From the IMG/VR virus record IMGVR_UViG_2648501841_000009: DNA of 7,023 nucleotides; one strand, 5' to 3'. The notes below the pieces were generated by a model. It saw only the letters and a list, made by a program, of their open reading frames with translations, did not search any database and had not been told where the DNA came from. Numbering within the stretch: the first letter of the stretch is position 1; the number at the start of each line of letters is the position of its first letter. Shown here one piece after another: positions 69 through 4,757 of the stretch. Source of the stretch: a virus (lineage: Duplodnaviria > Heunggongvirae > Uroviricota > Caudoviricetes). The translations under genes and the position numbers were made by a program.

Positions 69-260
69 TTAAAGTCCTGCCGGTATTTCGTTATTATTAG
101 TGTGAGTAGTTTTATCTACCGGATAACAGTTACCGGGAATTTTTTGTTCTGCTGCTGCAGCCATGCATTCTTTCATTGAACCGTATAAGCCAGTCACCAG
201 CTCAAGAGATTCGCCGGAAACAAGATAAACTGTCAGAACGAGTGCAAATGTTGTATTCAT
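69..260 (-). CDS. ydfD: YdfD-like small membrane protein (63 aa); Qin prophage YdfD is reported to cause lysis
   Basis: ATG at 260..258, stop at 71..69. Start overlaps the upstream gene's stop (ATGA), implying translational coupling. N-terminal hydrophobic stretch FALVLTVYLV followed by a Cys-containing tail. Length and position after dicB match YdfD of E. coli Qin as I recall it. Confidence 0.7.
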   Translation of the reverse strand: MNTTFALVLTVYLVSGESLELVTGLYGSMKECMAAAAEQKIPGNCYPVDKTTHTNNNEIPAGL

Positions 261-445
261 TGTTTATATCCTTTTTGCAGCAGGTCCAGACGAGCCAGCA
301 TTGAAGGAATGCATACTTCATTTAACAGGTCCTGCTCGAGTTTTCTCTGCTTAATGGCGTCTTCAATAAATGTTTTGTCTCCAGTGATAACGCCAATTTC
401 GAAACGAAGTTCAGACGTGCTGGCATTACATGATAACTTTTCCAT
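257..445 (-). CDS. dicB: DicB-like cell division inhibitor (62 aa)
   Basis: ATG at 445..443 with GAGGA about 8 nt upstream (minus strand). Product MEKLSCNASTSELRFEIGVITGDKTFIEDAIKQRKLEQDLLNEVCIPSMLARLDLLQKGYKQ closely resembles E. coli DicB as recalled from memory (FEIGV...TEDAI..RK.E..LLN..CI.SMLARL). The 98-aa ORF in the track begins at a TTG and is taken to be an over-extension. Confidence 0.8.
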   Translation of the reverse strand: MEKLSCNASTSELRFEIGVITGDKTFIEDAIKQRKLEQDLLNEVCIPSMLARLDLLQKGYKQ

Positions 446-625
446 TATCGCGTCCTCAACAATGAATTTTGTGATGCGGTGCCTGGTGCCTCCAGGTGAC
501 GTTAACCAGTTAACAATTAACGCCGGATACAGAGCATTCTCGTTACTCAGCAAATGACCGCTTTACCGATTTAACTGTTCCGCGTGCGCTGAGCCGCATT
601 CACCGCATCACAAAATTCACTTTTA

Positions 626-683
626 AAAAAGGGCGGCAGAGCAGTTACGGAGTAAAACTGATACCGCCAAATGTCACCAGAAT
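626..683 (-). ncRNA. dicF: DicF-like small regulatory RNA with 3' intrinsic terminator
   Basis: Minus-strand sequence ATTCTGGTGACATTTGGCGGTATCAGTTTTACTCCGTAACTGCTCTGCCGCCCTTTTTT matches the E. coli DicF sRNA as I recall it except at about three positions. It ends in a GC-rich hairpin (GGCGG...CCGCC) plus a T-run and lies just upstream of dicB, as in Qin. Confidence 0.75.
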
Positions 684-1019: not shown

Positions 1020-1205
1020 ATGCCAAACAAACCATGCCCTGCCTGTAACGCTCTTTCTGGCTTTTTAGAGAAGGGCGGTTATTACATTTTTAACTGTCCA
1101 GAACATGTTGAATTTCATATATCAAAACTTGACAGTATCATTACAAAGCCAAATCAGTATCAGTCTGATTTACTGAATAAAGAGTTAAACGCCGCCCGAG
1201 ATTAA
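1020..1205 (+). CDS. small zinc-ribbon-like protein (61 aa), function unknown
   Basis: GGAGG at 1009..1013, 6 nt before ATG 1020. Product has CPAC...NCPEH (CxxC-N16-CxxH) spacing typical of a zinc ribbon. AT-rich gene lying convergent to the leftward operon. I take the real start as ATG 1020, not the upstream GTG at 948 used in the ORF track. Confidence 0.5.
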   Translation: MPNKPCPACNALSGFLEKGGYYIFNCPEHVEFHISKLDSIITKPNQYQSDLLNKELNAARD

Positions 1206-1241: not shown

Positions 1242-1781
1242 ACTATTGTTGAACTGGATTAAACCAGTAATTCTCTATTGCTCTTATTGTTACCATCGGA
1301 TGATTGCCGGGGGTTATTTTAAGTTCGGGAGGAAAAGGCTCTCCATCAGCAGCCATCATTGAGTATGTGAAATCCGCCGACGCAGTCCCTTTCATGATAA
1401 TTCCGAATTTTTCAAGTAATGAGAGCAGTTCCGGTAATCCTGTGTCATCTGAATAACTTTCCTCATAGAAAGAAGCGATTGCCGCAGGAGATGACAGTTC
1501 TCGCTCTGCAATTTTTTTGTAGTTTTCCAGAATTCTTTTTTTGAATACTTTTCCTCGACATGAAAACCCATCACCGAGGCAATCCGCTTTGCAGTTTCTT
1601 CAGTATTCTGGTTGTTTGTTACCGAAACAGAGTACAATCCGGTAAACGCATCGCGCACATTACGAGCCATATTATCAATGTATTTCTTCGTTGCAGATTC
1701 TAATTCAACTTCGTTCAGACGTTGGTGAAGTGCATGTGCTGCAATTTCCTGGATTTCTTTTAGTAAATCTTTAAATTCCAT
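1242..1781 (-). pseudogene. apparently frameshifted ~180-aa gene in the ydfC position of the dicB-type operon
   Basis: Adding one base in either T7 run (plus 1512..1518 or 1536..1542, A7 on the coding strand) joins MEFKDLLKEIQ...EEKYSKK to ...IAERELSSPAAIASFYEESYSDDTGLPELLSLLEKFGIIMKGTASADFTYSMMAADGEPFPPELKITPGNHPMVTIRAIENYWFNPVQQ, ending at the TAG at 1244..1242. Confidence 0.5.
1392..1781 (-). CDS. hypothetical protein; probably the 5' part of a longer gene broken by a frameshift
   Basis: ATG at 1781..1779 with GGAG 7 nt upstream on the minus strand. The 129-aa ORF ends in a low-quality-looking tail, while the -1 frame stays open from about 1590 down to a TAG at 1244..1242 and encodes plausible protein (see pseudogene feature). 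Confidence 0.6.
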   Translation of the reverse strand: MEFKDLLKEIQEIAAHALHQRLNEVELESATKKYIDNMARNVRDAFTGLYSVSVTNNQNTEETAKRIASVMGFHVEEKYSKKEFWKTTKKLQSENCHLLRQSLLSMRKVIQMTQDYRNCSHYLKNSELS

Positions 1782-1792
1782 CTTTAACTCCG

Positions 1793-1921
1793 TTAGTCGT
1801 TAGATTTTGCCGAACTGGAAAGCGCCTGTTTAAACTCACTGAAGCTGAGAGCTTCCTCGCCTTCGGCAAGGCCTTCGAAGTATTCTTCGTAAGCCTTTTC
1901 CATGATTGTGTCGAAATCCAT
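1793..1921 (-). CDS. ydfB: YdfB-like small protein (42 aa)
   Basis: ATG at 1921..1919 preceded by AGGTGA. Product MDFDTIMEKAYEEYFEGLAEGEEALSFSEFKQALSSSAKSND. Its size and position between a 51-aa gene and the next gene match ydfB of Qin as I recall it. Not in the ORF track because it is under 60 aa. Confidence 0.65.
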   Translation of the reverse strand: MDFDTIMEKAYEEYFEGLAEGEEALSFSEFKQALSSSAKSND

Positions 1922-2103: not shown

Positions 2104-2113
2104 NNNNNNNNNN
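2104..2113. other. assembly gap or masked bases (10 N)
   Basis: Run of n characters in the 5' leader between the PL-like promoter and the ydfA-like gene. Confidence 0.95.
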
Positions 2114-2319: not shown

Positions 2320-2607
2320 TCAGATAGAGAAGGGAAATTGTCGCCGAGAATGTGTCACGCTTACAATCTCAATGCTTGAAGCAGCTACTCTGTACAGGAT
2401 TATGTAGTTAGGGTGGGTCACGATCTCTCTCAATCCAGAAACCCGTTCGCTTGGTGGATATAAGTACGGATGCTCAGATAGAGGTAATACCGATGTTTCA
2501 ATGCGTATTTTTAGTCTACGTGCTGCCGGTGGGTTCTCCTTGGCGATGTAAGTTATGATCTGGCGCAAATCATCGCGAGCAGACGGTAGCCATAAAATGG
2601 GTAACAT
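2320..2607 (-). CDS. parE: ParE/RelE-family type II toxin (95 aa), ParE2-like
   Basis: Product MLPILWLPSARDDLRQIITYIA...GLREIVTHPNYIILYRVAASSIEIVSVTHSRR shows the ParE-family pattern as I recall it. Its ATG overlaps the stop of the upstream antitoxin gene (TAATG). Confidence 0.9.
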   Translation of the reverse strand: MLPILWLPSARDDLRQIITYIAKENPPAARRLKIRIETSVLPLSEHPYLYPPSERVSGLREIVTHPNYIILYRVAASSIEIVSVTHSRRQFPFSI

Positions 2608-2798
2608 TACTCGCTCTTGTTAGTTACAGCAATTTGAGCAATAAGATTTTCCATTTCAGCCATTACCTCGTCATGTGGAATTGCGGGGCGAGTGTCTGCA
2701 AGGCTTGACGTTACTTTAGTGCGCAACCATTCGTTGTAACTGTTTTCTTGTTCGGTAGTTTCGAATTCTGAAACTATCGGAGAAAGGGCTGTACCCAT
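2607..2798 (-). CDS. paaA: PaaA2-like antitoxin (63 aa)
   Basis: GAGGAG about 9 nt upstream of ATG 2798..2796. The 63-aa product with SPIVSEFETTEQENSYNEWLRTKVTSSLADTRPAIPHDEV resembles the PaaA2 antitoxin of E. coli O157 as I recall it. It sits immediately upstream of and coupled to the ParE-like gene. Confidence 0.8.
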   Translation of the reverse strand: MGTALSPIVSEFETTEQENSYNEWLRTKVTSSLADTRPAIPHDEVMAEMENLIAQIAVTNKSE

Positions 2799-2825: not shown

Positions 2826-3227
2826 TCACGCCCGGCGGCTTTTTTGTGCCGCCAGCCACCTAGCAATGGTTTCTTCCATTGATTTTTTCTTGTCTTTGAT
2901 TTCTTGAAGCATTTTTTCTTGGTCTTCCTCAGGAAACGCACTAAAAGCTTGGAGCAGTTCGCGTTGGCGAGGACCAATTTTCATCGTGTCAGGGGTGAAA
3001 ATTTGCTCACACTCTTCAGGAGGCAATAAAAACCAATGCAATGGATGCCCTGAAACCTCAACCAGTTTATCCAAACTTGAGGCTTTAGGTGTAGCCTTAC
3101 CGCTGACCCATTGTTGAACAGTTTGTTGTGTCACACCAATTCTACGGGCAAGCTCAGCCTGGCTCCATCCAGTTTCCTGAAGAAGCTTGCTGATTCTGTA
3201 CATAGATACTTCTAGGGCGCTCATCAT
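2826..3227 (-). CDS. paaR: XRE-family HTH repressor, PaaR2/DicA-like (133 aa); likely the prophage immunity repressor
   Basis: N-terminal HTH (SQAELARRIGVTQQTVQQWVSG). It is the first gene of the leftward three-gene operon and is divergent from a Cro-like gene. Start is ATG 3227, with a second ATG at 3224; a possible alternative start at 3203 cannot be excluded. Confidence 0.85.
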   Translation of the reverse strand: MMSALEVSMYRISKLLQETGWSQAELARRIGVTQQTVQQWVSGKATPKASSLDKLVEVSGHPLHWFLLPPEECEQIFTPDTMKIGPRQRELLQAFSAFPEEDQEKMLQEIKDKKKSMEETIARWLAAQKSRRA

Positions 3228-4540: not shown

Positions 4541-4757
4541 TCAATATGTCGAGACGAAGGTATGTTTCGGCGCGCAGCCAGGCTCTGTAATCCGGGAGCA
4601 TTTCGGGGCTGTTACACCAGCGGTTTGTTGCTGCAACATTTAATACATGAGCCTGATAAAGGCTTTTCAAAAAATACATGTCGAACCTCCTCTGGTTCTG
4701 TCGATTGGGAACCACAGATTATATCCGGAGGAAGGTTCGGCACCAGATGAGGTAGCC

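Follow-up and report, generated by a model that had tools for sequence, protein, structure and literature searches.

The layout of the dicBF operon has been described for the Qin prophage of E. coli K-12 and for O157 prophages (PMC5069750), the K-12 Qin genes following one another in the order ydfA-ydfB-ydfC-dicF-dicB-ydfD. In E. coli genes AAAAAAA and UUUUUUU are under-represented in all frames, possibly through high indel rates and slippage, and E. coli reporter assays have shown that slippery heptamers lacking stimulators raise frameshifting no more than about tenfold over a 0.055% background (PMC4066793). Here we analysed a disrupted gene at 1242..1781 (minus strand) of a 7,023-nt stretch of tailed-phage DNA, referred to below as the window. 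Our analysis makes it highly probable that this gene, an accessory gene of ancestrally ~179 aa in the dicBF operon of a lambdoid E. coli prophage, carries a fixed, inherited 1-nt deletion (A8 to A7), and that it is a case of ordinary prophage gene decay.

The window comes from a lambdoid E. coli prophage, of which it forms the immunity and early-left region, with a dicBF operon. RefSeq annotation, Rfam and comparison with K-12 placed a DicA-like repressor, ydfA (DUF1391), ydfB, a variable gene, DicF, dicB and ydfD (DUF1482) on one strand, which is the arrangement that defines a dicBF operon, and the RefSeq annotation of the corresponding segment of O157:H7 PV15-279 had the same gene order as the window. 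On the minus strand, the DicA-like repressor (2826..3227) is followed by the DUF1391 (ydfA-like) gene and by ydfB (1793..1921), which was recognised from the annotation of the identical segment and from the K-12 YdfB sequence and lies immediately upstream of the disrupted gene. Downstream in the operon, on the same strand, are the DicF sRNA gene (631..682; Rfam RF00039, 76.9 bits, E = 3e-16), a dicB homologue (258..446) and a DUF1482 (ydfD-like) gene (69..260), and the presence of these three identifies the window as one of several dicBF copies in EHEC-type genomes. A 631-nt segment around the disrupted gene matched many complete E. coli genomes with 100% identity. Facing the disrupted gene on the plus strand is a convergent small Cys-rich gene of 61 aa (CPACN…NCPEH; 1020..1205), which belongs to phrog_10133, a family of unknown function. 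The DicA-like repressor and the ydfA-like gene are separated by a RelB/RelE-family toxin-antitoxin pair (2320..2798, minus strand), which is absent at this position from K-12 Qin and from the loci with intact alleles of the disrupted gene. Homology of the disrupted gene to K-12 YdfC (b1573, 72 aa) was considered and rejected, as tblastn against the K-12 ydfB-dicF interval returned E = 5.5. Rho-dependent termination, through which the premature stop might alter polarity on dicF and dicB, is not mentioned in a preprint on dicBF regulation.

Three-frame translation of the minus strand over 1242..1781 showed that frame 0 runs from an ATG at 1781 to a TGA at 1392-1394, giving a product of 129 aa, while the -1 frame is free of stop codons from 17 codons before the first A-run to a TAG at 1242-1244. 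Only two T7 runs (plus strand) are found in the gene, at 1512..1518 and 1536..1542, and one added base at either of them produced an ORF of 179 aa. A sequence-only reading of this stretch had described the same layout of a 129-aa ORF, a -1 frame open to the TAG and two T7 runs, and had proposed a single ~180-aa gene broken by 1 nt at a 7-nt homopolymer. Both the layout and the proposal were upheld, the latter by comparison with intact homologues, in which the two frames form one ORF in the same gene context.

The reconstructed protein matched full-length, single-ORF homologues of 177–186 aa (P0001-P0009) in protein searches, and these aligned with it from end to end. The closest were P0001 (179 aa, 91% identity), P0002 (179 aa, 82%) and P0003 (180 aa, 77%), followed by six E. 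coli and Salmonella homologues of 177–186 aa with 61–68% identity. The neighbours of P0002 and P0003 are those of the window, with DUF1391 upstream and a convergent 80-aa gene, dicB, DUF1482 and a YdfE-type exonuclease downstream, and the order DUF1391, gene, convergent small gene, dicB, DUF1482, exonuclease was likewise seen at the intact loci L005, L007 and L012. Similarity to the closest intact homologue extended into the stranded part of the gene, where the -1-frame translation was 98% identical (2 differences in 89 residues) and the corresponding 89 codons differed from the closest intact allele by just 2 synonymous and 2 non-synonymous substitutions.

These alignments also position the lesion. 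The intact proteins, which read …EEKYSKKEFWKTTKK-IAERELSSP…, track frame 0 of the window past the first A-run and then follow its -1 frame exactly after the second. In the DNA alignment the window was 1 nt short precisely within the A-run at 1512..1518 (alignment column 276), where four intact alleles (L002, L005, L007 and L012) have A8 (ACA AAA AAA ATT) and the window has A7, and on this basis the break was placed at 1512..1518. The upstream A7 run at 1536..1542 (minus strand) is not the site of the window's break, its length being that of most intact alleles (A7 in L002, L005 and L010; A6 in L007). On the minus strand, the gene therefore consists of an N-terminal part in the native frame (residues 1–90; 1512..1781), as delimited by protein alignment and module searches, an out-of-frame tail (residues 91–129, LQSENCHLL…SELS, with its TGA; 1392..1511) and a C-terminal domain of 89 codons and a TAG stranded in the -1 frame (1242..1512), the last two being delimited by frame translation together with protein and DNA alignment, respectively. 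The sequence-only reading had the 129-aa ORF changing character after about residue 84; a switch of frame does occur, but the native sequence reaches residue 90 (…EFWKTTKK), and residues 91–129 have no similarity to the intact homologues. Its suggestion that a base added in either run restores ~180 aa is correct for the arithmetic of the ORF, but the actual break is the 1512..1518 run alone. The native frame also contains a 50-aa ORF (1243..1395) that covers the C-terminal 50 residues of the ancestral protein and whose ATG (1393..1395, minus strand) overlaps the TGA of the 129-aa ORF as ATGA. A 50-aa protein of this type is present in protein databases as a gene call (P0122), and from the 1392-1395 overlap alone, termination-reinitiation is conceivable.

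A frame break at a 7-nt homopolymer invites the explanation favoured by the sequence-only reading, systematic under-calling of homopolymers, in which the true sequence would be A8 and the window's assembly would be in error. This was examined with an 81-nt query spanning both A-runs, in A7 and A8 versions of the second run, against complete E. coli genomes. The A7/A7 query matched 386 genomes, 384 of them with 100% identity, while the A8 query matched the same 386 and was identical to none. One of the two differing genomes was inspected (E105), and it had a flanking SNP with the run still A7. Carriers of the A7 allele included O157:H7 EDL933, TW14359 and Xuzhou21, members of O121:H19, O103 and O111:H11, and isolates from pig and fish, sequenced by many different groups, and RefSeq treats the 129-aa ORF as an ordinary hypothetical protein (WP_000394511.1) with no pseudogene flag. 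Since 384 of 386 genomes carry the exact A7 allele and none is identical to the A8 query, the break is not a base-calling artefact, and under-calling at this site can be taken as effectively refuted. The lesion is thus present in the DNA of 384 independent complete genomes, and intact orthologues carry both halves as one ORF in the same context, as is expected of a frameshift pseudogene or truncated allele; of the alternatives that the sequence-only reading had offered, it was real pseudogenisation that the evidence bore out. Searches with two intact alleles recovered an intact copy from one of 5,426 complete genomes, that of strain A19 from a vampire bat, whose allele is 99.6% identical to that of P0003 and is annotated as a single CDS.

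The other point in favour of under-calling came from a second break in the same window, which behaves differently. A plus-strand A7 at 5298..5304 splits a replication-initiator-like gene into ORFs at 4647..5399 and 5387..5848. At this site O157:H7 PV15-279 has A8 and a single ORF of 363 aa, and among complete genomes only FORC_044 shared the A7 form. Of the approximately 450 others with full-length matches, most showed 98.8% identity, and in the seven listed the match extended over 82 nt, one base more, consistent with A8. The break at 5298..5304 may be either a private mutation or a base under-called in assembly. The window's two A7 breaks thus stand in contrast, since one is a fixed feature of hundreds of genomes whereas the other is nearly private, and it takes a population comparison to distinguish an under-call from a real lesion when a homopolymer frame break is met in one assembly. 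Two further 1-nt differences from PV15-279 were seen at short homopolymers, in a G-run at ~762 between the disrupted gene and dicF and in a T-run at ~2247 between the RelE gene and the ydfA-like gene. The window also contains N runs (masked or unresolved) at 2104..2113 and 5876..6007, the second of which lies inside a DnaC/IstB-like replication gene.

The same genome comparison bears on whether the A-tract could act as a contingency locus, flipping reversibly within populations between an off state (A7) and an on state (A8). Contingency loci classically switch through homopolymer tracts, and A8, A7 and A6 alleles of the 1512..1518 run are all present in databases. Against such switching, tract-length polymorphism was not found among near-identical strains: none of the 386 genomes matched the A8 query exactly, 384 were A7, and only 2 differed from the A7 query over the 81 nt, the one examined through its flanking SNP. 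The A8 alleles occur instead on clearly diverged backgrounds (77–91% protein identity) and not on the haplotype of the A7 allele, and a tract of 7–8 nt is short for high-frequency switching. Phase variation at this run is accordingly given very little credence.

The stranded C-terminal frame bears the marks of selection on protein sequence. Comparison of E. coli-type with Salmonella-type intact alleles by the Nei-Gojobori method gave dN/dS values of 0.21–0.26 for the 89 C-terminal codons, at dS of approximately 1.1–1.3, and this purifying selection (dN/dS ~0.2), together with the 98% identity noted above, indicates that the frame is genuine coding sequence and not a chance open frame. When the window gene was compared half by half with L002, L005, L007 and L010, dS for the N- and C-terminal halves was 0.18 and 1.22 against the Salmonella type, and 0.78 and 0.11 against the P0003 type. 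The discordant values identify the gene as a recombinational mosaic with a junction near the conserved A-rich linker EEKYSKKEFWK. In the window the stranded frame has acquired no stop codon, and a single change (R to M) is absent from all intact alleles examined, which have R at that position, or K in A19. Such minimal decay counts against a simple truncation, although a recent lesion and continued use would both explain it. Similarly, the frameshifted allele far outnumbers intact ones among complete genomes, which can be explained by hitchhiking and STEC sampling bias and equally by selection for the truncation.

Further frame breaks were found among relatives of the gene. L009/P0011 has A6 at the run equivalent to 1512..1518, although an A7 run with an assembly error would look the same; P0017 and P0018 are broken at the first run (1536..1542) and read …SKKNSGK…; and P0016 is broken at another position. 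On sequence grounds these independent breaks fit a picture in which the A-runs are indel hot spots and the gene is dispensable. The convergent neighbour is also altered in this lineage, being shortened by a TCA-to-TAA change to 61 aa in comparison to the 80 aa found beside intact alleles in protein and DNA alignments, with loss of the 20-nt 3' overlap between the 80-aa gene and the disrupted gene that characterises the intact loci. Lesions in two adjacent genes fit local decay, and the two genes may be a functional pair.

Alternatively, the two-frame arrangement may be put to use. Ribosomes shifting to the -1 frame on A_AAA_AAA, or RNA polymerase slipping and adding one A, would by such functional recoding produce a regulated fraction of full-length protein beside the truncated one, in the manner of a 'savior indel plus compensatory frameshifting'. 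Both A7 runs form X_XXY_YYZ heptamers in the zero-frame phase (TC-A AAA AAA and AC-A AAA AAA), as a programmed -1 frameshift cassette requires, and a -1 shift at either leads into the native C-terminal frame, which is open and nearly unchanged; hundreds of genomes share the fixed allele, and there are precedents for indels in homopolymers being compensated by frameshifting at a low level (reviewed in PMC5009743). An in-phase heptamer is nevertheless not evidence of selection, because it arises automatically when one A is deleted from an in-frame ACA-AAA-AAA-A. Neither the two-frame layout nor the slippery site was conserved among diverged homologues, the intact relatives being single ORFs with A8 and the Salmonella-type allele L010 having no A-run of 5 or more at the position of the second run. 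The 92 nt downstream of the run contained no stimulatory RNA structure, folding no better than shuffled sequences (MFE -22.4 kcal/mol, mean of the shuffles -20.9; z = -0.45), and no GGAGG-like Shine-Dalgarno element was found on reading the 6–17 nt upstream. Efficient transcriptional slippage in E. coli and other enterobacterial examples needs runs of about 9 or more, and the run here is 7 nt. Heptamers without stimulators yield little frameshifting (PMC4066793), so that full-length product from slippage should amount to well under 1%, and the other broken alleles, shifted in the +1 direction (A6) or interrupted elsewhere, resemble random decay. Taken together, programmed frameshifting in this gene is unlikely, and functional recoding in either form is improbable. 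A related proposal, to which we assign a similarly slim chance, is that A8 to A7 was itself selected as a 'savior' indel: a C-terminal domain costly to the lysogen would be mostly switched off while the N-terminal module was still made, with traces of the C-terminal domain supplied by -1 slippage or by re-initiation at the ATGA. If true, it would account for both the fixation in hundreds of E. coli genomes and the still-open stranded frame.

What the deletion would remove can be judged from the construction of the protein, which is in two parts, an N-terminal helical module of ~55 aa (1620..1781, minus strand; consensus MEFKDLP..IQ.IAA..L….NVRDAFTGLYS) and a rarer C-terminal domain. An exhaustive profile search of 1.84 billion representatives returned 83 relatives, nearly all of which share just the N-terminal ~55 residues; a single independent relative of the C-terminal domain was found among these representatives (P0136, 119 aa). 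The module occurs alone in proteins of 50–130 aa and is fused to at least three unrelated C-termini, including those of the 208–214-aa Ybl81/phrog_2151 family. It is widespread (proteins P0121-P0198) and unannotated, with no Pfam family, and was seen once as a tandem duplication (P0149). Two PHROGs families of unknown function matched the protein, phrog_1363 over residues 1–92 and phrog_2151 over residues 1–83. Pfam scans of ten of the 83 relatives gave no match, and searches of Pfam, NCBIfam and PADLOC with the reconstructed protein, P0001 and a 212-aa relative gave nothing significant, in agreement with the earlier statement that the gene has no recognisable function. An AlphaFold2 model built from a 9-sequence alignment was poor (mean pLDDT 50, pTM 0.34), with the C-terminal half below 50. 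Against a phage collection, megablast returned a match of only 36 nt and tblastn only relatives of ~34% identity in Stx phages, covering 71% of the query; there is therefore no close intact copy known in an isolated phage.

In summary, our preferred reading is that the A8 tract lost one base and that the resulting allele was inherited. Replication slippage on the tract is the most likely origin of the deletion, which would then have reached O157:H7, O121, O103, O111 and non-STEC strains either by travelling with a prophage lineage that was successful or through recombination between lambdoid prophages. Read from its ATG at 1781, the gene encodes 90 native and then 39 out-of-frame residues before the TGA at 1392-1394, and the C-terminal 89 codons are left untranslated in the -1 frame. 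The predicted product is a C-terminally truncated protein that retains the ~55-aa N-terminal module, and because this module exists alone in many relatives, the truncated protein may keep the N-terminal part of the function. The function of the C-terminal domain would be lost, except for a trace (well under 1%) from spontaneous -1 slippage on the A_AAA_AAA runs. The consequence for annotation is that WP_000394511.1 (129 aa), and phrog_1363 at least in part, represent a frameshift product in which the C-terminal 39 residues do not belong to the native sequence, the true family being a two-domain protein of ~179 aa. The biological consequence is small, as this is another decayed accessory gene in an E. 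coli prophage and the event is of an ordinary kind.

Comparison with described systems places the gene as follows. It shares with ydfC of the K-12 Qin dicBF operon its position between ydfB and dicF and an operon controlled by a DicA-like repressor, but its protein has no sequence similarity to K-12 YdfC, and as the two are not homologous, the slot between ydfB and dicF holds alternative, unrelated cassettes. The 208–214-aa prophage proteins of the Ybl81/phrog_2151 family share the N-terminal ~55–80 residues (for most members, 55–67% identity across 47% of the query), but their C-terminal domain is unrelated to that of the window gene. With the -1 frameshift cassettes of E. coli dnaX (A_AAA_AAG) and of IS911/IS3 orfAB the gene has in common an A-rich X_XXY_YYZ heptamer and a downstream domain in the -1 frame; unlike these cassettes, it lacks a stimulatory structure and a Shine-Dalgarno element, its layout is not conserved and its intact relatives are single ORFs. 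The homopolymer-indel pseudogenes and truncated genes of cryptic or defective lambdoid prophages (Qin, Rac and the Sp/CP-933 elements of O157) differ from the window gene in that it carries no pseudogene flag in RefSeq and its stranded half is almost undecayed. In both cases, however, the loss of a single base in a mononucleotide run has broken an accessory gene, the lesion is inherited and common to many strains, and a neighbouring gene is disabled as well.
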